Positions 7,225 through 60,402 of a DNA stretch of 64,000 nt are shown here, piece after piece. Every line of letters starts with the position of its first letter. The stretch's first letter is position 1. The notes under the pieces were generated by a model. That model ran no database searches and was not told the origin of the DNA. It worked only from the letters and a program-made list of their open reading frames with translations. Source of the stretch: Candidatus Marinacidobacterium sp. (GTDB lineage Bacteria > Acidobacteriota > Vicinamibacteria > Marinacidobacterales > Marinacidobacteraceae); the NCBI GenBank assembly GCA_965220965.1, contig CBDCRI010000001.1, positions 256,001-320,000 of the forward strand, given 5' to 3'. The translations under genes were made by a program, and so were the position numbers.

Positions 7225-7479
7225 ATGGCGGTTTTGAGCTTGGACCAGTTCGAGGGGCTGAGGGCCGTTCCCGGCGACCCCGGCCATGTCGTGGAGGTGG
7301 GCCTGAACGAGGCCGACGTCGGACGCCTGCGGGCGTTGGTGGCCGCGTTCTCGGCGGACGGCGACCCGGCCAGCGTCGGCGAGGTGGTGCGCGCCTCGAT
7401 CCGCGCCCTGCACCGTCGGGAGTGCCGCGGCGGGGACGCCGTCGCAAGCCTGCAGGATGGACGCAGTGCGCGGCAGTGA
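7225..7479 (+). CDS. small ribbon-helix-helix-like protein
   Basis: V.L...LRALV...SVGEVVRASIRAL pattern; TGCTAAAAT promoter upstream. Confidence 0.4.
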   Translation: MAVLSLDQFEGLRAVPGDPGHVVEVGLNEADVGRLRALVAAFSADGDPASVGEVVRASIRALHRRECRGGDAVASLQDGRSARQ

Positions 7480-8380
7480 AGGAGATGCCGACGGCCGCGA
7501 GGCGATCGGCTACAGGGACTTCTGGAACGCGGCCGCGGGCCGCTGGCGCGACTTCGACCGGGTGAGGGTCCTGCCGGACGCTTGGATGGACCAAGTGCGC
7601 GGGAGCCACGTGCCGCCCCACCTGGTGGGGGCGAGCTTCCGGTCCGCCGACCTGTCGGGCGTGTCGCTGGCCGGCTGGAGCCTGCCCGGGGCGGACTTCT
7701 CGGATGCGCTTCTCCTAGAGGCCGACTGCTCGGAGGCGCAGATGACGGGCGCCGACTTCCGCCGCGCCCGGCTGGCGGGGGCCCGGTTCGTGAACGCCGA
7801 GCTGCCGTTCGCCGAGTACGCCTTCGCCGACGCGGAAGGGGCCTCCTTCCAAGGCGCCGCCGCGCCGTTCGCCCGCTGGCCGGAAGCCTCGCCGCCGCCG
7901 GAGGGCGAGGGGCGCCGCTCCCTGGCCCATGCCCGGAAGGGCTTCCCTCCGGCGGCTGGGGAGCCTTTCTGGGGCAGCGATCCGCACGCCCGCCAAGTTG
8001 CCCTGGCGGATTGGGAGGCGCGCTCGCTCGGCCTGCCGCCGCCCACGGCCGAAGTCATGGCGCGCGCCCTGTTCGCGCTCAGGCGCCTGGCCCGGGCGGC
8101 GGGGGCCGCCCCCGTGACCTTCGCCCTGTCCGACTGCGGCGGCGTCGGCATTGCGGTCGCATCGCCCCGCGACCCGCGGCGGCGCCGCGACGGCCTGGTC
8201 CTGCGGGTCAGCAACGTGCAGGACCACTTGACCGTCCACATGCTCTCCGGAGGCGTCCTGCGCCAATTCCTCATCGGCTCCCAGGAGCGCGACATGGCCG
8301 AGGGGGTGCCGAACGCCTGCGCAGCCCTGGCGGCGCACGCCTCCGCGAAGTCGCCCCGCCCGGCGGGCCTCGCCCCCTAG
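7457..8380 (+). CDS. pentapeptide-repeat protein
   Basis: ASFRS ADLSG ... ADFSD ... ADFRR ARLAG ARFVN repeats. Confidence 0.75.
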   Translation: MDAVRGSEGDADGREAIGYRDFWNAAAGRWRDFDRVRVLPDAWMDQVRGSHVPPHLVGASFRSADLSGVSLAGWSLPGADFSDALLLEADCSEAQMTGADFRRARLAGARFVNAELPFAEYAFADAEGASFQGAAAPFARWPEASPPPEGEGRRSLAHARKGFPPAAGEPFWGSDPHARQVALADWEARSLGLPPPTAEVMARALFALRRLARAAGAAPVTFALSDCGGVGIAVASPRDPRRRRDGLVLRVSNVQDHLTVHMLSGGVLRQFLIGSQERDMAEGVPNACAALAAHASAKSPRPAGLAP

Positions 8381-8485: not shown

Positions 8486-9253
8486 GTGAGCGGCGCCGCC
8501 CCCATCACCCTGAGGGCCGGGCTGCAGGCCGACTTCGAGGCCGTCGACGCCGTCCTGAGCGCCTTTCCGATCCGCGGCGCCCTGCTCGGCGGAGGCACCG
8601 TGCTCGCCGCCCTCTGGGACCACAGGGACTCCAGGGACCTCGACCTCTTCGTGCCGCGCGGCGTCGCTTCCGCCCTGCCGAAGGGCACGCCGTCCGCGCT
8701 CGCCGGGCGGCTTCGGGAGCGGCTCGGCGCCGAGGTGATGCGCGTCGGGGAGCGGCTCGACGAGGACGTCTGGGTGGTGTCCGCCCGGCTGCCGGGAGGG
8801 ACGCCGCTCTCGATCCACTGCCTGACCCACGACCGGCACGCCCAAGGGCCGCCGATCCATAACGGCGCGGTGCCGTCGCTCAGCGTCGCCGACATCATGC
8901 GGGGCAAGCTCGCGGGGCGGGCCGTCATCGCCCACCTGCTCGCGGGCACCAGCCACGACCGGCCGCCCATCCGCGACCTCTACGACGTGGCGGTGTGCGC
9001 GCAGCTGGCCCCGGAGGCGCTTGCGGCGGTCCTAGGGGAGATGGGCGCGGAGTACCGGGCCATGGCCGCGGCGGCCTTCCTGGCGGCGCCGCCGGACTTC
9101 CACAAGCTCGACCCCCAGCCGATCATGAACCAGAGGTTCGACGTCGACCTGCAGGGGCTGCCGCAAGCCGTGGGGAGGGCGGTCGAGGCCGGCGACCCCG
9201 GCCTGATCCCGGCCGCGGCGCGGCTGCCCAATCCGAACGGCCCGGCCCCGTGA
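8486..9253 (+). CDS. AbiEii/DUF1814-family nucleotidyltransferase (type IV TA toxin-like)
   Basis: LGGGTVLA, HRDSRDLDLF, GKL, RDLYD motifs. Confidence 0.8.
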   Translation: MSGAAPITLRAGLQADFEAVDAVLSAFPIRGALLGGGTVLAALWDHRDSRDLDLFVPRGVASALPKGTPSALAGRLRERLGAEVMRVGERLDEDVWVVSARLPGGTPLSIHCLTHDRHAQGPPIHNGAVPSLSVADIMRGKLAGRAVIAHLLAGTSHDRPPIRDLYDVAVCAQLAPEALAAVLGEMGAEYRAMAAAAFLAAPPDFHKLDPQPIMNQRFDVDLQGLPQAVGRAVEAGDPGLIPAAARLPNPNGPAP

Positions 9254-14954: not shown

Positions 14955-15122
14955 ATGCAAGCCGACAGGAAGGGGCGCGAAGCCCCGCTGACCGCTGAGG
15001 AGATCGCCAAGCTCGACGATCGGGACATCGACGTGAGCGACATCCCGGAGCTTGGCGAGGACTTCCGGCGGTCCGCGAGGCGCGTTGATCCCGATTCCGA
15101 GGAACGGGGCGCAAGCGACTGA
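14955..15122 (+). pseudogene. truncated BrnA-like antitoxin N-terminus
   Basis: DDRDIDVSDIPELGEDF motif; C-terminal DNA-binding part absent. Confidence 0.5.
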
Positions 15123-15158
15123 TTCGGAAGGGGCGGGAATCCCCTCGGCCGCCTGCCC

Positions 15159-15902
15159 TCAGGGGGCCGGGGCCGCGCCGCGCTCGACGTGCTCGATGCG
15201 CGCCAGGGTGGTCGCCCCCTCGGGGCGCTCGCCGGCCAGGATGGCCCGCGCCAGCCGCCTGATCCGGGACAGCGCCACCGGCCGGTAGTCCAGCTGCTCG
15301 ACCGAGACGTTGACGTGCGGCGAGTCGGGCGCCTTGACGGTCCGGTGCTGGTGGCCGTGGACGTTGACGTGCCCGGCGGGGACGCGCGGCAGCGGCGCGT
15401 GGGTCCAGACCAGCGGCGGGTCGCCGGGCGAGACGAGCAGCGCCACCGTACGGTCGAACCCGCCCATGCGCGACCGGCCCAGCCCGTCCACGTCGTGGTT
15501 GCCGGCCACCAGAACCTTGGTGGCGCCGGGCGCTTGGCGCACGCTCGCCCACGTCTCGTCGCTCACCGCCGCGCCCAGGGCGAAGTCGCCGACGCAGACC
15601 ATGACCTCATCCGGCCGGACGTCCAGCCGCCAGCTCTCCCACAGCGCCGAGTCCATCTCCCCGACGCCGTCGAAGGGGCGGTCCTGGTAGCCGATGATGT
15701 TGGCGTGGCCCAGGTGCAGGTCGGACCACGCCTTGACGGCGCCGTCCGGCGCATCGAGCGTCCCCGCCCCGTGCAGCTCCAGCGCCCGGCGCATGGACGA
15801 CAGGCGCTTGCCGCCCCGGCCGAGCGCCTCCCGCAGGTCGTCGCGGTACAGCTCGGCCAGCTGCTTGGGGCGGGGCCTTGCGGGCCCCTTTCGTCGTGCC
15901 AT
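15159..15902 (-). CDS. calcineurin-like metallophosphoesterase
   Basis: SDLHLGH, GDF, GNHD, THAP, HGHQH; AAGGAG RBS 8 nt before ATG 15902. Confidence 0.9.
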   Translation of the reverse strand: MARRKGPARPRPKQLAELYRDDLREALGRGGKRLSSMRRALELHGAGTLDAPDGAVKAWSDLHLGHANIIGYQDRPFDGVGEMDSALWESWRLDVRPDEVMVCVGDFALGAAVSDETWASVRQAPGATKVLVAGNHDVDGLGRSRMGGFDRTVALLVSPGDPPLVWTHAPLPRVPAGHVNVHGHQHRTVKAPDSPHVNVSVEQLDYRPVALSRIRRLARAILAGERPEGATTLARIEHVERGAAPAP

Positions 15903-15964
15903 GGTCATCGCTCCTTCGAAGGGTCGGCATTTTACAGCGCCTGCCGCGCCGGGGCGGCGGGGAA

Positions 15965-16038
15965 TGGTCGGCCCGGAAGGAATCGAACCTTCGTCAGCAG
16001 GGTAAGAGCCTGGTGCGCAGCCACTACGCCACGAGCCG
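15965..16038 (-). tRNA. tRNA-Lys(CTT)
   Basis: cloverleaf, loop CT-CTT-AC, TTCGATT T-loop, encoded CCA. Confidence 0.8.
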
Positions 16039-16100
16039 AGTTCTCGGGTTGGTGCCTGGAGGCGGTCCCGGGCCGGCGGGCGGGGCGCCCGGGAGGGGAA

Positions 16101-16176
16101 TGGCCTGCCCAGGTGGACTCGAACCACCGACCTGCGCCTCCGCAGGGCGCCGCTCTTTCCGCTGAGCTATGGGCAG
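16101..16176 (-). tRNA. tRNA-Arg(GCG)
   Basis: GCGCC-CT-GCG-GA-GGCGC arm, encoded CCA. Confidence 0.9.
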
Positions 16177-16193
16177 GAGGCGGGCTTGCATGG

Positions 16194-16281
16194 TGGCGGA
16201 GGCTGTGGGGATCGAACCCACACACCCTTTCGAGCATCACCGGCCTCCAACCGGCTTAGCGCGCCAGCCGTGCGAGCCTCC
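16194..16281 (-). tRNA. tRNA-Ser(GGA), atypical D-arm
   Basis: GGAGGCT/AGCCTCC acceptor, G73, long variable arm, loop TT-GGA-GG. Confidence 0.8.
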
Positions 16282-16331
16282 GTGGTTTCCTTCGCGGCGC
16301 CCCGCTTGCCGGGAGCGGGGCGCCGGCCGCG

Positions 16332-16419
16332 TGGCGGAGGCTGTGGGGGTCGAACCCACACGCCCTTTCGAGCATCACCGGGTTCAAGCCGGCTTAGCGC
16401 GCCAACTGTGCGAGCCTCC
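16332..16419 (-). tRNA. tRNA-Ser(TGA), atypical D-arm
   Basis: near-identical body to the Ser(GGA) gene, loop CT-TGA-AC. Confidence 0.8.
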
Positions 16420-16428
16420 GCGATCGAG

Positions 16429-16504
16429 TGGCCTGCCCGGGAGGACTCGAACCTCCGTCCTGCGCCTTAGAAGGGCGCTGCTCCATCCGCTGAGCCACGG
16501 GCAG
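16429..16504 (-). tRNA. tRNA-Arg(TCT)
   Basis: GCGCC-CT-TCT-AA-GGCGC arm, encoded CCA. Confidence 0.9.
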
Positions 16505-16516
16505 TGGGAACGAAAC

Positions 16517-16603
16517 TGGCGGAGAGGGCGGGATTCGAACCCGCGCAGGCTTTCACCCTCCCGCTTAGCAAGCGGGCGCCATAAACCGCTCGGCCACCTC
16601 TCC
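16517..16603 (-). tRNA. tRNA-Ser(GCT)
   Basis: canonical type II serine tRNA, GGAGAGG acceptor, loop TT-GCT-AA. Confidence 0.9.
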
Positions 16604-16655
16604 GGTTCTTGCGCTGCCGGAGGCGCGCCCGCGACGCGGGCCGTTCCCGGCGAAT

Positions 16656-16745
16656 TGGCGGAGGCTGTAGGGATCGAACCCACACGGCCCTCTCGGGCCA
16701 TCACCCGTTTCGAGCGGGATAAGCACGCCAGCCTTGCGAGCCTCC
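16656..16745 (-). tRNA. tRNA-Ser(CGA), atypical D-arm
   Basis: GGAGGCT acceptor, loop CT-CGA-AA, long variable arm. Confidence 0.8.
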
Positions 16746-16750
16746 TGACT

Positions 16751-16824
16751 TGGTGGAGCGACAGGGACTTGAACCCTGATCTCCTGCCTGCGACGCAGGG
16801 GTTCTCCCGTTGAACCATCGCCCC
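16751..16824 (-). tRNA. tRNA-Ala(CGC)
   Basis: G3:U70 alanine identity pair, CCTGC-GT-CGC-AG-GCAGG. Confidence 0.9.
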
Positions 16825-16858
16825 GTGCGGCGCCGGCCGGACCGCCGGCGCCCGCCAC

Positions 16859-16943
16859 TGGTACAGGGAGAGGGAGTCGAACCCCCACAGCCCGAAGGCC
16901 CGTGGTTTACAGCCACGTGAGCTCGCCATTGCTCAGCCCCTGC
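16859..16943 (-). tRNA. tRNA-Tyr(GTA)
   Basis: CGTGG-CT-GTA-AA-CCACG, variable arm, A73-CCA. Confidence 0.85.
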
Positions 16944-17006
16944 GAAAGGACCGGGCGCAGGGGCTCCCCGGCGACGGGGAGCCCAGCGCCCAAGACACCA
17001 ACCCGA

Positions 17007-17018
17007 TTGTGAAAGATC
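17007..17018 (-). promoter_or_regulatory. boxA-like antitermination site
   Basis: GATCTTTCACAA resembles rrn boxA; lies between the leader terminator and the first tRNA. Confidence 0.55.
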
Positions 17019-17032
17019 GCTTTCCGGGGCCG

Positions 17033-17074
17033 AAAACGAAGAAGCCCCGGAGGTTTTGAACCTGCCAGGGCTTC
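17033..17074 (-). terminator. intrinsic terminator in the leader of the tRNA operon (attenuator)
   Basis: GAAGCCCTGG/CCGGGGCTTC 10-bp stem plus inner AGGTT/AACCT, followed by TTCGTTTT. Confidence 0.65.
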
Positions 17075-17143
17075 GGAGGGGTACTTGTGTGCTCCGTCTG
17101 TCAGGCTCAAGGCCTTCCAGACGCAGTTCGCAGCTGGAACGGC

Positions 17144-17224
17144 CTACACGGCAACGCCGCGGGAACGCTTTCTTGAAGCGCCCGCTTGCCGAGGACTATA
17201 GAACCCGTTTTGCGAAGTAAGCAT
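17144..17224 (-). CDS. putative leader peptide MLTSQNGFYSPRQAGASRKRSRGVAV
   Basis: ATG 9 nt after TATAAT; contains codons read by all nine downstream tRNAs; precedes a terminator. Confidence 0.65.
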   Translation of the reverse strand: MLTSQNGFYSPRQAGASRKRSRGVAV

Positions 17225-17233
17225 GATGGCTGA

Positions 17234-17263
17234 ATTATACCCCATTGGCCGAAGTCGGGGCAA
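17234..17263 (-). promoter_or_regulatory. sigma70 promoter of the tRNA operon
   Basis: TTGCCC-18 nt-TATAAT. Confidence 0.65.
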
Positions 17264-17358
17264 ATCGAAGTCTTGTCCAACGAGAAGTGAGCCTGAAGCA
17301 AGGGATGGTTTCCAGCGTGAAGCGAGCCCAGCCAGCGGGCTCCACTCTGCTCGGCGGT

Positions 17359-18486
17359 TCAGGCGTCGGGGGCATCGGCCAGCCGCTGAACTGCCGCGGA
17401 GTAGAATTCGGGAACGACCTCCGCACTGCGACACGCCCGATCAAGGCGAAGCGAGCACACCGCCGCTGGACACAGGCCGCCGAAGGGTTCCCAAACCGCG
17501 TCGCCGGGGTCAGTGGTCGCACTGATCGACCTCTCCACGAATTCCAGCGGCTTTTGGCTGCCGTGCAGGCTCTTGTACTTCCACCGCATTCCCTGACGCT
17601 CCCCGTTGATCCGTTCCTTGCCGGCCACCTGTGACTTGCGCCACACGTTGGTGACCCCGGCGGAGCAGCGGAACTTTGCGCGCATGCGGGACCATTGCTT
17701 GGCCGTTGTCGGCTGCTTGCCGTCTTGGCTGAAATAGGGTTTGCCGGCGGAGTGTCCGTGCTTGTTGGCGTAGTCAACGAGCCGTGCGAACGCCTCCGGC
17801 GGTGGGTAGTACCAGAGGTGATCGGCGGTTAGGTACTTTCGCGTGGCGGCATTGGCGACGCCGCAGGCATCGTTGGCCAAGCGCAAGGGCAGCCCGGCGC
17901 GGCGCCACTCGTGGCGGAGCCACTCCTGCATGGTCAGCGGCTTGCCGGACTCGGACGTGAAGCTCGCGGCCTTGACGTACTGGGCGCACACTTCCGTCAC
18001 CACGGGGAATTTCCGAAGCGTGCGGGTGTTGGCATTGCCAGCGATGTGGCCCAAGCCCTTGTCCCAGATGTGGCAGCTTCGGTACTCCCAGCCGTGCTCG
18101 GCCAGCAGGGGGTGAACGGTGGCCCAGCCGAGCTCGGAGTTCCAGAACCACAGCGTCGTCTCAGGCGTTGACCGCCTGGCCCAAGCCTCGACGTGAGGGC
18201 GGTACCAGTCAACGAGGCCATGGGCGGAGTGCAGGTCCCCCGGGAATCCGCTCAGGCCGCACGGCCCGTCCGCGATGATGCATGTCGGCGCCGGCCACTG
18301 TCCGTAGAGGGACTCCGCAGGACCAAAGTGAATCGTTGAAGCGGCTCGCTGGAAGGACTGGGGGTCAATCCACGCGGATGACGAAGCGTCCTCCATGCCG
18401 GTCGGCGCCGCATTCGTGCCGATTGGGGGGAATGGAGCTTGTGGTTCCGGAAACGGCGACCCTTGGCTGTCCGATTCACGCATCAT
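17359..18486 (-). CDS. N6/N4 (beta-class) DNA methyltransferase with altered catalytic motif
   Basis: ADGPCG at motif IV, HGSQKP, VWEPFGG. Confidence 0.8.
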   Translation of the reverse strand: MMRESDSQGSPFPEPQAPFPPIGTNAAPTGMEDASSSAWIDPQSFQRAASTIHFGPAESLYGQWPAPTCIIADGPCGLSGFPGDLHSAHGLVDWYRPHVEAWARRSTPETTLWFWNSELGWATVHPLLAEHGWEYRSCHIWDKGLGHIAGNANTRTLRKFPVVTEVCAQYVKAASFTSESGKPLTMQEWLRHEWRRAGLPLRLANDACGVANAATRKYLTADHLWYYPPPEAFARLVDYANKHGHSAGKPYFSQDGKQPTTAKQWSRMRAKFRCSAGVTNVWRKSQVAGKERINGERQGMRWKYKSLHGSQKPLEFVERSISATTDPGDAVWEPFGGLCPAAVCSLRLDRACRSAEVVPEFYSAAVQRLADAPDA

Positions 18487-18542
18487 GTCCGTTGACCCGA
18501 AGCTTCATTGTACGTGGGTTGAATCCCAAGCGGTGGCTGGCG

Positions 18543-36425: not shown

Positions 36426-37433
36426 TCAGGGCGACGGAGCGCCCGCCCCACCGGCGGCCGCGGCGCCCAGGGAAGGCAGCCCGGCCCCGCGCGCGTGCAG
36501 GTCCTCCGGCCGCGCCGCAAGGGGCCGTGGCCCCTCCGCGGCGCAGAGCACCCAGCCGCGGCGGAAGCTGCCGGCGTCGGCCTCGCCGCCTTCGCGGCGG
36601 AACTCGATCCACTCGAAGGCCACCGGATCGAGGCCGCCCTCCCGCACCAGGGCGCTGGCGGCCTCCGCGCAGGCATCGACCGAAGCCTCCAGCCTGGAGT
36701 CCACCTGCACGGTGCCGGGCGGCAGCCCCGGCCCCTGCCAGCGCACGCGGGCGCCGGGGGCCAGGGCCGCAAGCGGGGCCTCGCCGCCGCACGCGGCCGC
36801 AAGGCCGGGGCCGGCCCGGAAGGCGATCGTGGAGAAAAGCCGGCCCGCCAGGTCCAGTGCGCGGTCCCGCTCATGGTCGGCCTCAAGCGGGAACAGGTCG
36901 CGGGGGGGCACCCGCTCGCCACGGCGCTGGCGCCGCCAAGGCAGCTCCCGGCGCAAAACCGCCCGCAGGGCCTTGCCCGCAATCCAGGTCTCGCGAAGGG
37001 GCGTTCGGAGCTCGATGGCGAAGCGCGACTGGGCCGCCGCGGCGCCGCCCGCAAGGCACGTCCCGACGGCGGCGAGCCGCGCGGCGCGCACGCCCGGCCG
37101 GGCGTCCAGGGCCAGGCCCGCGGGCAGGGGCTCCCCGGCCGCGGCGCGCTCAGCGTTGCGGCGGACGCCGTCAAGCAGCTCAAGGGCCGCCGTGCTCCGC
37201 TCCGGGTGCGGCAGGTCGCAAAGGCGCAGCAGGCTCTCGACGCACCGCCAGAAGGCCGCCTCCCCGGGCACCGGGTCGGCGTCGGGGAACGCCTCGCAGA
37301 GCGCCTCCTCATCGTCGAGCACGGCGCTGAGGTCGGCGAGCATGGCCGGGCCGGCCGCCTCCCGAAGGCCCGCCTCGCGGATGCGCGCGATCAGGTTGGG
37401 GGCGTGCCTCCTGAGCAGCTCGTGGGGCGTCAT
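36426..37433 (-). CDS. hypothetical protein (tandem paralog B)
   Basis: AGGAGG RBS; collinear similarity with 35364-36386. Confidence 0.75.
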   Translation of the reverse strand: MTPHELLRRHAPNLIARIREAGLREAAGPAMLADLSAVLDDEEALCEAFPDADPVPGEAAFWRCVESLLRLCDLPHPERSTAALELLDGVRRNAERAAAGEPLPAGLALDARPGVRAARLAAVGTCLAGGAAAAQSRFAIELRTPLRETWIAGKALRAVLRRELPWRRQRRGERVPPRDLFPLEADHERDRALDLAGRLFSTIAFRAGPGLAAACGGEAPLAALAPGARVRWQGPGLPPGTVQVDSRLEASVDACAEAASALVREGGLDPVAFEWIEFRREGGEADAGSFRRGWVLCAAEGPRPLAARPEDLHARGAGLPSLGAAAAGGAGAPSP

Positions 37434-55300: not shown

Positions 55301-55596
55301 AAGACCCTGCTGGCTTACTCGGAACTGCAGCAATGGTAGCACGCTGCCCGCAAGATGGTCCGAACCGGATTTTTTTCGTGGCATGCGGATGCCCTCCAAG
55401 GGACGGCCTCGCCCACCTCCCCGACACCGCCTGAAGCGCCTCTGCCCGATTGCGCCAGCCCTTGGCCGGCCGATTCGTTCCAGAGCGTCATAAGACCTGA
55501 CGGCGCGGCTCAAGCTCTCTTAAGCCGGCAAGCTCGTGCAACATTCGGGCTAGGCAGCCGCGGGGGCCGCCCAAGGGGCTGCGCCGCGCCGGTCGG

Positions 55597-56580
55597 TCAT
55601 CCGGGGGCGGGGCCGGCCGCCCTCCCCGCCTGCGAAGGCCCGTCCGTCGGCGCGGGCCGCCCCGCCCCGAGGCCATGCAGCGCGGCGGGGTCGTAGCGGT
55701 GCACGGCGGACAGGATGTCGTCGACCAGGCGCGCCTCCCTCCCGGTCGAGGGCAGCGCCTCGGCCAGCGAGCCGTAGTGCATCTCGAGCGCGTCCATCAG
55801 GAGTCCGCGCAGCGCCTCCAGGTCCGGGGAGCGCGGCAGCGCGGTCCTCGCCTTCAGGGCCTCCAGCTCGCGCTCCTTGTCGGCGAACCAGTCCTTGATC
55901 CGCTGCTTGGACCACTCGCCGCGGCGCACCGCCTTGTACAGCTCGCGGTCGCGGTCGAGCACCAGGTCGCCGCCGGCGAGGATCTGCTCGCACTCGCAGG
56001 CCAAGCGCACGATGTGGTAGGCGAACTTGGTGTCGAAACCGTGGGCGTCGATCGCCGCCTGGCGCTGCGGATTGGCCCGCTTGGGCCGGCCGTCGAGCTT
56101 CTTCAGCTGGGCGTAGGCGTAGCCGCGGAACCGGGCGAAGGCGCCTTGGTGAAGGAACAAGCGGCGGTGGTCGCGCACGTGCTCGTAGAGCGCGGTGGAG
56201 TGGCGCACGCAGCGCCGCGGGCAGAACAGCGCGTCCACCATGTTGGGGTTGTTGTCGGCGCACAGGTCGAAGAAGCGCACGAGGGAGTAGATCGTGACAT
56301 CGTACTGCCTGCGCGTCTGCGCAAACTCGACGTGGTGCTGCTGGAACTGGTCGAAGGAGGGCGGCGCCGGACCGAATCCCGGTATGTGCCCGGCGAGGTG
56401 CGGGAAGACCTGATGCTTGGGCGGCATGGCGAACCCGACGATGTCCTCGTCCGAGTTGCCTGGCTCCGCGCAGCCGTAGGCGACCGAGCCGGTGGTCGCC
56501 TCGAACATGACGTTGTGCGGCAGCCAGGGCGGCGGCGTGATCAGCCCCTCCCGGGCCAGCTTTGCGGTGATTGAGGCCAT
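55597..56580 (-). CDS. Pol-beta superfamily nucleotidyltransferase (YcgL/RlaP-like)
   Basis: GS.AYG....SDED..G, NPN....L, DTKFAYH.VRL. Confidence 0.85.
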   Translation of the reverse strand: MASITAKLAREGLITPPPWLPHNVMFEATTGSVAYGCAEPGNSDEDIVGFAMPPKHQVFPHLAGHIPGFGPAPPSFDQFQQHHVEFAQTRRQYDVTIYSLVRFFDLCADNNPNMVDALFCPRRCVRHSTALYEHVRDHRRLFLHQGAFARFRGYAYAQLKKLDGRPKRANPQRQAAIDAHGFDTKFAYHIVRLACECEQILAGGDLVLDRDRELYKAVRRGEWSKQRIKDWFADKERELEALKARTALPRSPDLEALRGLLMDALEMHYGSLAEALPSTGREARLVDDILSAVHRYDPAALHGLGAGRPAPTDGPSQAGRAAGPAPG

Positions 56581-59553: not shown

Positions 59554-60402
59554 CTAGGACGTCTCCAGCGCATGCTTCGTGTCCCACACCGGAGCCGAAC
59601 TGCCGTCCCGCCTCCAACATCGACGCTCGGCCAGCTCCTGAAGCAGGTACGGCATTAGCGCTCGCCGGACACGGATGACGCGCTTGCCCGTTTCAGGAAT
59701 GCCGTACTCGTGCTCGTAGCAGAGCCGCTCGTCATGGGAAAGCTCCTTGGAAAGGATGAACTCGCGTCTCTCGAACGAGTTCCAATCGTCGTCCCCATCG
59801 AGTCCGACAAAGGGCGCTTCGTCGTCTCGCCATGCATCGATGGACCGAGCAGGCACGACATCCACGTAGCGATCCTCGAGCGGCCGACTGAACTCGTCAC
59901 GGCAACCCGCTCTGTACCCTCGCACGTGATAGCGCCCCCTTGTGCGAACGAGTTCGGATGGCGAAAAGACGAATTCCTGACGGCCGGTTTTGGCTGCGTA
60001 GACCAGCCTCACTGGCTCCCTGTCGAGCCATGCAGCCACAAATTCCCGAACCGCAGCAGAAGGTGTCGCCGCGGTGAGCGACAAATCGTGTCCTCTGGCC
60101 TTGGGCACGGTCGATGCGAATGGGTTTCCCGGCAAGCCGTTGCCAATCAGCATCAGTGCAAACGCAACGCCCGGATCGATGACTTCGGGCGCCGGTTCAA
60201 AGCGTTCGTCCGGCACCAGACATCGTTCCGAACTCGGCTTATAAGGTGGCAAGAGGCCGCGAACCCGCCATTCGGAGATCAGGTTCCTTGCGGTGCGCTC
60301 GGAAACGCGCGCGAACCTCTGCACATCGCCCGCTTTGAGGCCTCCTCGCCAGAACAGCATGGTTTCAGCAAAACGGCGTGCAACTGCGCGACCAACATTC
60401 AT
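59554..60402 (-). CDS. wHTH-WYL transcriptional regulator (BrxR/CapW-like)
   Basis: LFWRG...F..S.RTA HTH; V.L.Y...R...P..L....RYHVRGY...YVD. Confidence 0.8.
   Translation of the reverse strand: MNVGRAVARRFAETMLFWRGGLKAGDVQRFARVSERTARNLISEWRVRGLLPPYKPSSERCLVPDERFEPAPEVIDPGVAFALMLIGNGLPGNPFASTVPKARGHDLSLTAATPSAAVREFVAAWLDREPVRLVYAAKTGRQEFVFSPSELVRTRGRYHVRGYRAGCRDEFSRPLEDRYVDVVPARSIDAWRDDEAPFVGLDGDDDWNSFERREFILSKELSHDERLCYEHEYGIPETGKRVIRVRRALMPYLLQELAERRCWRRDGSSAPVWDTKHALETS

Follow-up and report, generated by a model that had tools for sequence, protein, structure and literature searches.

A tRNA array behind a regulated-looking leader

The locus described here is an array of nine transfer RNA (tRNA) genes, together with the leader region in front of it, on the second replicon of Candidatus Marinacidobacterium sp. 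The assembly of this organism has contigs of 2.88 Mb (71% GC) and 363 kb (73% GC). The stretch that was analysed, called the window below, is 64,000 nt long (C2:256001-320000), and positions given without a contig are counted from its first letter. Read along the minus strand, the locus consists of a sigma-70-type promoter, an open reading frame (ORF) of 26 codons, an intrinsic terminator and the tRNA genes. An earlier note on this DNA had listed these elements and proposed that the ORF encodes a leader peptide sampling the codons of all the tRNAs behind it. The elements were all recovered at the positions claimed for them, and the arrangement points, tentatively, to a phage-type tRNA array that was acquired horizontally and is preceded by a ribosome-mediated attenuator.

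The tRNA genes were called with ARAGORN, and the region 15000-18500 was also scanned with Rfam at E values up to 1. Nine genes were found on the minus strand within 979 nt (15965-16943): Tyr-GTA (16943-16859), Ala-CGC (16824-16751), Ser-CGA (16745-16656), Ser-GCT (16603-16517), Arg-TCT (16504-16429), Ser-TGA (16419-16332), Ser-GGA (16281-16194), Arg-GCG (16176-16101) and Lys-CTT (16038-15965). Six of them scored above threshold with the tRNA model of Rfam, and Ser-CGA, Ser-TGA and Ser-GGA matched the tRNA-Sec model only, below threshold. Together they form a foreign addition to a complete housekeeping set. On the large contig, 52 tRNA genes were found alongside a transfer-messenger RNA gene, and the chromosome holds isoacceptors for eight of the nine array anticodons; Arg-GCG has no counterpart there, and Arg-ACG serves the CGN codons. 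The array is smaller, at nine genes, than the arrays termed long in PMC8421152.

Several features set the array tRNAs apart from those of the chromosome. They are 60-78% identical to the chromosomal isoacceptors, and all nine encode the CCA end, compared to 25 of the 54 other predicted tRNAs. The anticodon loops also differ from those of the chromosomal isoacceptors: Lys-CTT has A37 and C38, Arg-GCG has G37, Ser-GGA has U32 together with G37 and G38, Ser-TGA has C38, and Ala-CGC has G32 and G38. Such deviant loops have a parallel in phage tRNAs that evade anticodon nucleases. A 24-letter signature of the Ser tRNAs was found in 3 viral and 21 metagenome contigs, and 20 of these 24 loci have at least three tRNA genes; a signature of the Arg tRNAs was found in two viral arrays. 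Within the array, identity reaches 91% between Ser-GGA and Ser-TGA, 82% between Ser-CGA and either of these two, and 84% between Arg-GCG and Arg-TCT, likenesses that are read as internal duplication with a change of anticodon. Judged by these comparisons, the array tRNAs look foreign in origin and horizontally acquired. A foreign array that duplicates the chromosomal set fits a back-up role, and its content, with all four Ser isoacceptors, two Arg, Lys and Tyr, overlaps known targets of tRNA-directed toxins.

Promoter and predicted leaderless start of the ORF

The promoter, TTGCCC-18-TATAAT, lies at 17263-17234 on the minus strand. It is the sole promoter-like site in the region 15500-18000, where shuffled sequence is expected to yield 0.1 such sites, and the promoter of the genome's ribosomal RNA (rRNA) genes is of the same type (TTGACC-17-TATACT). 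The ORF follows at 17224-17144, also on the minus strand, with 26 codons and a stop, and reads MLTSQNGFYSPRQAGASRKRSRGVAV. Its ATG stands 9 nt past the -10 hexamer, and no Shine-Dalgarno sequence precedes it.

A leaderless start of this kind was compared with the starts of 1356 gene-like ORFs in this genome. A TANNNT motif was found 4-10 nt upstream of 153 of the 6672 start candidates (2.3%), compared to 24 of the 19708 internal ATG or GTG codons (0.12%), and the 153 cases correspond to about 11% of gene starts. The spacings peak at 6-9 nt, with 42, 36, 24 and 33 cases, respectively. Shine-Dalgarno-like motifs, on the other hand, were barely enriched, at 22.7% of start candidates versus 18.3% of internal codons. 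This is a strong signature, at the level of sequence, of leaderless starts being common in this genome, and it should be useful for annotating the lineage. Since the signature is genome-wide, the TATAAT-9 nt-ATG arrangement of the leader fits the local norm for a translated leaderless gene; the same 9-nt spacing is found at 33 of the 153 leaderless-type starts. By a hand estimate, an ATG or GTG would stand at a leaderless spacing by chance in about 10% of cases.

Only three places in the whole genome have a small ORF of 8-60 codons that is preceded by a leaderless-type -10 hexamer and accompanied by a terminator no more than 160 nt away. The other two are false, as they fall inside an array of clustered regularly interspaced short palindromic repeats (CRISPR) at C2:190950-191500, and therefore the leader locus is the only genuine case in the genome. 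The CRISPR array itself lies outside the window on the second replicon and has repeats of about 28 nt of the type CCCCGCCTGCGCGGGGATGGACCC.

Terminator, alternative hairpins and in silico switch

The terminator that the earlier note had placed between the ORF and the tRNA genes was borne out by folding. It occupies 17074-17032 on the minus strand and consists of a bulged 15-bp hairpin (17074-17041; -23.4 to -24.8 kcal/mol) followed by UUCGUUUUC. A simple terminator scan returned 0 sites with 2.1 expected and missed this hairpin. Our own scan called a hairpin of -14 kcal/mol or better that is followed by at least six T in eight bases. The leader terminator is one of 228 such sites in the genome (3.25 Mb, or 6.5 Mb for both strands), four of which are in the window. 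Its 3' arm is also able to pair with 17030-17023.

In the 110 nt from the stop codon to the U-tract, four consecutive and mutually exclusive hairpins are predicted on the minus strand, formed by five segments, with the terminator (4:5) as the last. Hairpin 1:2 (17145-17110; -20.6 kcal/mol) has a 5' arm that begins at the last two bases of the stop codon. Hairpin 2:3 (17126-17092; -20.8 kcal/mol) excludes both 1:2 and 3:4. Hairpin 3:4 (17110-17056; -19.9 kcal/mol) is a putative antiterminator that would sequester CUG.CAGGUUCAA, the loop-proximal half of the terminator 5' arm, and the remaining bases of that arm could pair with the 3' arm only by crossing hairpin 3:4. A further hairpin is predicted inside the ORF, over codons 12-26 (17191-17149, minus strand), in both the minimum free energy and the centroid structures, and it was retained in further folds, those of the nascent RNA included; its apical loop CAAGA and upper stem contain TCA AGA AAG CGT. 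It is possible that this hairpin acts as a pause hairpin for RNA polymerase. As a whole, the leader folds better than shuffled versions of itself (z = -2.9 and -5.2).

The effect of a ribosome on these pairings was modeled by folding the nascent RNA as it would be before the terminator 3' arm is made, with a 28-nt ribosome mask, and taking the minimum free energy structure. Hairpins 1:2 and 3:4 were present when no ribosome was placed and when the ribosome stood at any of codons 1-25. When it stood at codon 26 or at the stop codon, the structure switched to hairpin 2:3 and the antiterminator was gone. An equally clean switch was seen in 26 of 2000 shuffles, and in 114 of 2000 under looser limits. 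A second statistic scored chains of three overlapping hairpins of which the first lies within 15 nt of the stop codon. The weakest link of the chain here is -18.5, and none of 400 dinucleotide shuffles reached -15. Taken over these folding models, the structural evidence for a switch is moderate (p about 0.003-0.04).

Between the terminator and the first tRNA gene lies a boxA-like sequence, GATCTTTCACAA (17018-17007, minus strand), which counts as weak evidence. It is the sole match to TCTTT[ACG]ACAA in the genome, where about 0.8 would be expected by a hand estimate, and is not significant by itself. The rRNA leader carries CACTTTCAACAA, and GATCTTTCACAA appears to resemble the consensus of the boxA antitermination element of Escherichia coli. 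Further on, at 16984-16961 on the minus strand, the pre-tRNA leader contains the perfect palindrome GGGCTCCCCG-TCGC-CGGGGAGCCC. A related copy is present elsewhere in the window (37114-37155, or C2:293114-293155; 81% over 42 nt), and short matches to the palindrome recur in other genomes of the phylum. This GC-rich sequence may be a small repeated palindromic element. In addition, 16965-16956 of the pre-tRNA leader is a perfect 10-nt complement of the 5' acceptor strand of tRNA-Tyr (16944-16935), and the acceptor stem of tRNA-Tyr itself has two G-U pairs. Pairing of 16965-16956 could compete with the folding or processing of tRNA-Tyr.

Codon match between the leader and the array

The earlier note claimed that every tRNA of the array has a codon it can read in the leader, and that six such codons stand in a row. 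Both statements hold: by standard wobble, a readable codon is present for nine of the nine tRNAs, and codons 17-22 (TCA AGA AAG CGT TCC CGC) are all array-cognate. The note had also asked how often a random ORF would cover all nine, and the answer is about 0.2-0.6%. Full cover was found in 6 of 2895 natural small ORFs of this genome (22-30 codons), in 203 of 100,000 and 356 of 200,000 stop-free shuffles of the leader ORF, and in 78 of 100,000 random draws at intergenic composition. The leader ORF contains 24 different codons that touch 26 of 43 anticodons, and the probability that these include all nine of the array is 0.0055.

The signal in the codon match is the one-of-each pattern. Array-cognate codons make up 10 of the 26, and having at least 10 is unremarkable, since this occurs in 4.7% of shuffles and 31% of natural small ORFs. 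At least six cognate codons in a row were seen in 486 of 200,000 shuffles and, among the natural small ORFs, in 80 of 2895, and the run together with full cover in 15 of 200,000 shuffles and none of the 2895 natural small ORFs. The run carries less weight because it was noticed after the fact. With p values of 0.002-0.006, obtained from a scan of many windows, the codon match is suggestive and not decisive, and it would be insufficient alone.

The earlier note had further described several leader codons as unexpected at this GC content. In the genes of this genome, TCA, AGA, AGT and TAT do occur at only 0.9-1.9 per 1000 codons, and CGT at 4.5. The leader also contains ACT, CAA (twice) and CCT, which are equally very rare, yet no tRNA of the array serves them. 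Of the leader codons, TCA, AGA and AAG make up the loop and upper stem of the hairpin within the ORF, so RNA structure alone could explain these three.

A possible ribosome-mediated attenuator

The best single explanation of this locus, in our view, is ribosome-mediated attenuation of a phage-type tRNA array that was horizontally acquired, a tentative choice whose probability falls somewhat short of even. It is favored because of the type of promoter, the leaderless geometry, the placement of the terminator and the in silico switch at the stop codon. In the model, transcription would begin at the ATG of the 26-codon ORF or 3 nt before it. A ribosome that reaches the stop codon smoothly would cover segment 1, which begins within that codon. 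Segment 2 would then pair with segment 3, segment 4 would be left free for the 4:5 terminator, and the transcript would end at about 17032, before the tRNAs. If the ribosome lagged anywhere in the ORF, or was absent, hairpin 1:2 would form first and segment 3 would pair with segment 4 as the antiterminator, letting the polymerase read into the tRNA genes and probably on into the phosphoesterase and ribonucleotide reductase genes behind them. Such a lag might be caused by a hungry codon, by a damaged or depleted tRNA, or by general inhibition of translation. Once made, the array tRNAs would help ribosomes past 10 of the 26 codons and would in this way close a negative feedback loop.

A number of findings weigh against this reading. 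The ORF does not look like a gene of this genome: its GC content at third codon positions (GC3) is 14 of 26 (54%), compared to 0.80-0.95 in the gene-like ORFs of the window, eight of the 26 codons are used very rarely in this genome, and its codon usage resembles that of non-coding sequence of 59% GC. The predicted transcript start may leave a 5' untranslated region of 3 nt instead of none. As for the codon match, 16 of the 26 codons are not array-cognate, and the ORF touches 17 of the 34 anticodons outside the array as well. The U-tract of the terminator, UUCGUUUUC, is interrupted. The structural statistics were designed after the structure had been seen, and they depend on the rule applied. 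In a duplex-based version of the chain, the weakest link is -4.5 and 227 of 3000 shuffles are as good or better, a strict rule against overlap gives only -10.1, and the antiterminator alone is matched by 8.2% of shuffles. Among the flanks of natural terminators, 9 of 228, including this locus, have a chain at least as strong as -18.5; GC content is higher in the eight others (0.73-0.85 versus 0.60 here, with a flank median of 0.71), and without the position rule the locus ranks 11th of the 228. Finally, with the full-length leader at equilibrium, the terminator is favored by 4.5-11.3 kcal/mol at every ribosome position. Since equilibrium always favors the terminator, the attenuator model depends entirely on co-transcriptional kinetics, as the trp attenuator likewise does.

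The case also stands as a single locus: no homologous leader or orthologous array was found in any collection searched. A DNA search of 61 relatives gave tRNA-sized matches and, in one genome (G024), a 60-nt repeat resembling an insertion sequence (IS), which is described below. Searches of 55 genomes from the order and 401 from the phylum returned matches no longer than about 40 nt, most of them on the GC palindrome, and no leader. One of the relatives, G036, is an unpublished genome and enters the not-found counts only. Plasmids in PLSDB covered at most 12% of the query and GenBank phages at most 11%. Pattern scans of IMG/VR and one metagenome scan yielded no related leader, and the arrays met there were non-orthologous; the exact 22-mer of the terminator was absent from the viral contigs searched. 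One AT-rich viral array that was inspected (L135) has promoter-like sites directly before its first tRNA and no leader.

The genes beside the array gave a similar outcome. Relatives of the adjoining methyltransferase, at 2 viral and 80 genome loci, were accompanied by three single tRNAs in all and by no array. The phosphoesterase was not found in the viral contigs nor in the other 54 genomes searched in the order, and four viral loci with relatives of the ribonucleotide reductase had no tRNAs. Contigs from four public runs contained identical low-depth copies of the locus, with no variants in the leader. The Rfam scan gave tRNA-related and weak unrelated hits only, which on the leader itself amounted to mir-637 at E 0.4. 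A search of the accessible literature returned nothing relevant on a leader peptide or on ribosome-mediated attenuation at a tRNA array, operon or gene.

Alternative explanations

The strongest alternative is that the leader is structured but untranslated and that its 26 codons are open by chance. In that case the promoter would drive the array through a partly efficient terminator that acts constitutively, as a damper, or is controlled by phage-type or Nus/boxA-type antitermination, a protein or a small RNA, and the codon match would be a coincidence. We see this as a genuine possibility, if a doubtful one. The non-coding-like codons with their low GC3 and eight rare members favor it, as do the missing Shine-Dalgarno sequence and the six other small ORFs that cover all nine tRNAs. 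The reading frame is open for 96 codons upstream, as can be expected where stops are rare at this GC content. The position of TCA, AGA and AAG in a hairpin loop and upper stem could by itself account for these codons, and hairpin chains as strong as this one occur in 8 of the 227 other natural terminator flanks. The boxA-like motif after the terminator and the phage-like neighboring genes also count in its favor. However, an ATG at leaderless spacing from a perfect TATAAT is expected by chance in only about 10% of cases, and the hairpin chain has its first arm at the stop codon, exactly where the in silico switch flips. The cover of all nine tRNAs and the failure of the leader to match any Rfam family also argue against a chance ORF.

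The more elaborate proposal of the earlier note, that the leader is a multiplex sensor of its own tRNAs, fared less well. Its architecture of promoter, leader, switchable terminator and array stood up in silico, but the sampling of its own nine tRNAs was not established. In its fullest form, the leader would be a purpose-built hungry-codon sensor with one readable codon for each downstream isoacceptor, four of the sensing codons being very rare in the genome. Depletion of or damage to any tRNA of the array type, by an anticodon nuclease or an acceptor-stem toxin, would keep the ribosome off the stop codon, the antiterminator would turn on the foreign replacement tRNAs, and these would then shut the switch off. 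We consider this unlikely. Sixteen of the 26 codons are served by tRNAs outside the array, and four of those codons are very rare, so the switch would answer any slowing of translation and not only a shortage of the array isoacceptors.

Another possible explanation is that the promoter, ORF and terminator form a self-contained small gene, for a basic peptide of 26 residues or a small RNA of about 190 nt, and that the array is transcribed independently, from an unrecognized promoter or by incidental read-through. We regard this as quite improbable. The promoter and strong terminator do bracket a unit of about 190 nt that folds better than its shuffles, and mobile elements often carry small genes that end in a terminator of their own. 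On the other side, the stretch from the terminator to the first tRNA contains no further promoter-like site, and the 290-nt gap would be unusual if the promoter were unrelated to the array, given the promoter-like sites at the first tRNA of the viral array L135. By our own reading of the sequence, the peptide is not hydrophobic and thus unlike a type I toxin, and a simple gene end needs no alternative pairings that overlap its terminator. Lastly, a decaying remnant, in which an insertion and a foreign island left a fortuitous arrangement with no regulatory role and a possibly silent array, is very improbable: the IS-like terminal repeat does end only 6 nt away from the -35 hexamer, none of the other 54 genomes searched in the order has the island, and supernumerary arrays are often poorly transcribed according to PMC8421152, but all nine tRNAs score as intact with an encoded CCA, and the promoter hexamers and terminator are near consensus.

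If the locus is indeed a ribosome-mediated attenuator, it would join two known kinds of system, leader-peptide attenuation and stress-induced mobile tRNA arrays. It would couple the state of the tRNA pool directly to the production of replacement tRNAs with no protein in between, and would extend attenuation of the trp and his type to a new class of target and to leaderless mRNAs. Spare tRNA arrays on plasmids and phages are increasingly viewed as insurance against translational stress and tRNA-targeting defence. To our knowledge, how the decision to use such an array is made is understood in one case only, the repression of a promoter by TrcR in Anabaena. Should the multiplex proposal be correct, the leader would be the first known leader-peptide attenuator of tRNA genes and the first to read many different codons instead of a run of one. 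Even if the codon match arose by chance, the locus would still show clearly that a mobile tRNA array can be preceded by a leader with the look of a regulatory one.

Comparison with known systems

The leader peptides trpL, hisL, thrL, pheL and pheM are transcription attenuators of amino-acid operons and pheST. The locus described here resembles them in its order of promoter, short ORF, predicted overlapping alternative hairpins and intrinsic terminator before the genes that would be regulated. It also resembles them in that a ribosome at the stop codon favors termination and a lagging ribosome favors read-through, which in our case is an in silico result. In contrast to the trpL type, the products that would be regulated are tRNAs and not enzymes, the ORF is leaderless, and no known homologues of the leader exist. 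There is also no run of codons for a single amino acid; instead, ten scattered or adjacent codons match nine different tRNAs. The number of segments differs as well. With five segments, the absence of translation predicts read-through here, whereas trp shows superattenuation.

Other regulatory leaders share some of these features. A Term-seq study by Dar et al. in 2016 reportedly described ribosome-mediated attenuation of antibiotic-resistance and ABC-F genes, including ermC, vmlR and bmrCD. As in those cases, a small upstream ORF is proposed here to sense slowed translation in general and to relieve a terminator. In those cases, however, ribosomes are stalled by a drug and the products are resistance proteins, whereas here the products are spare tRNAs and the ORF has no evident drug-specific stalling motif. 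T-box riboswitches sense uncharged tRNA directly, with no ORF. A terminator/antiterminator leader tied to tRNA status, as proposed here, is like a T-box, but the Rfam scan gave no T-box match at E values up to 1.

The array itself can be compared with those of phages. Phage tRNAs replace host tRNAs that are hit by anticodon nucleases or tRNA-modifying toxins, as in T5 against PARIS and with mycobacteriophage tRNAs, and the tRNA-targeting nucleases and toxins concerned include PrrC, colicins D and E5, and MenT3. The present array shares Ser and Arg tRNA types with arrays on viral contigs. It differs in lying on a replicon with no match to the capsid, terminase and portal families that were tried, and also, relative to the one viral array inspected, in the regulated-looking leader of 290 nt that precedes the tRNAs.

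The closest parallel in setting is the trn operon of Anabaena sp. PCC 7120, a megaplasmid-borne tRNA array that stays silent as long as translation is not impaired. Its control is at the promoter, where direct repeats are bound by the repressor TrcR (PMC8421152 and PMC10272220). Both arrays are supernumerary, horizontally acquired and located on a secondary replicon, and they differ in size, with 23-26 genes in the trn operon and 9 here. The words leader and terminator and the word stem attenuat are absent from PMC8421152. No match to the published TrcR repeat motif TGTWNWWNWNNWGTANYNWA was found near the promoter at 17234-17263; elsewhere in the window the motif is matched once, at 60398, with 2 mismatches. 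No direct repeats were present at 17234-17263 either.

IS-like repeat at the upstream edge

The upstream edge of the unit is marked by a remnant of an IS-like terminal repeat (17328-17269, minus strand), 6 nt from the -35 hexamer. The 60-nt repeat is matched at 81% in the genome of a relative (G024:C10:21892-21951) and at 76% in an inverted copy there (55472-55532). The two G024 copies are thus inverted and about 33.5 kb apart. By our reading of the sequence, a transposase-like ORF in G024 (C10; L129, about 1495-1565) starts about 40 nt away from the repeat. From these matches, 17269-17328 looks like the terminal repeat of an insertion element. No second copy of it is present in this assembly. 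Other contigs of run X1 match the 60-nt repeat with 2-7 differences, and one of them has the same depth as this genome; that contig may represent a further copy absent from the assembly. Seven viral contigs that matched a 17-mer of the repeat were read as chance matches, their flanks being unrelated.

Neighboring genes

The genes around the array are of phage-like or mobile-element types. Directly behind it is a phage-type phosphoesterase gene (15908-15159, minus strand; phrog_547, E 7.6e-34), whose product has no Pfam match. It starts 56 nt past tRNA-Lys, and GAAGGAG precedes its ATG. Neither the simple terminator scan nor the genome-wide scan for hairpins with T-runs found a terminator-like site between the array and this gene, and the two are probably co-transcribed. 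A class II-like ribonucleotide reductase gene also lies behind the array, and other neighbors encode a DUF5131 protein, two DNA methylases, an SNF2 helicase and a UvrD helicase.

An N6/N4 DNA methylase gene (17362-18486, minus strand) adjoins the array on the other side of the IS-like repeat. Relatives that are 62-84% identical to it were found in metagenome-assembled genomes labeled as many different phyla (80 loci kept of 200 relatives), and none of these 80 genome loci has a tRNA array next to the methylase gene, which seems to travel widely. The families HK97 capsid, Terminase_6N and portal, the three that were tried, had no match in the whole genome, and therefore the setting is described as a foreign island on the second replicon and not as a prophage.

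Two further genes in the window belong to families connected with RNA. The first encodes an AbiEii-family nucleotidyltransferase (8486-9250, plus strand; Pfam E 1.1e-9) and lies 7 kb from the array that bears all four Ser isoacceptors. AbiEii-family members such as MenT3 inactivate the acceptor ends of tRNA-Ser. The ORF preceding this gene (7457-8377, plus strand) encodes a pentapeptide-repeat protein, which is not a recognizable AbiEi antitoxin. The second gene (55600-56580, minus strand; Pfam E 4e-14) encodes a protein of the RlaP family, annotated as 'RNA repair pathway DNA polymerase beta family', and is adjoined by an ORF of 522 residues that has no family match. The RlaP-family gene and this ORF may form a second RNA-repair-related module on the same replicon.

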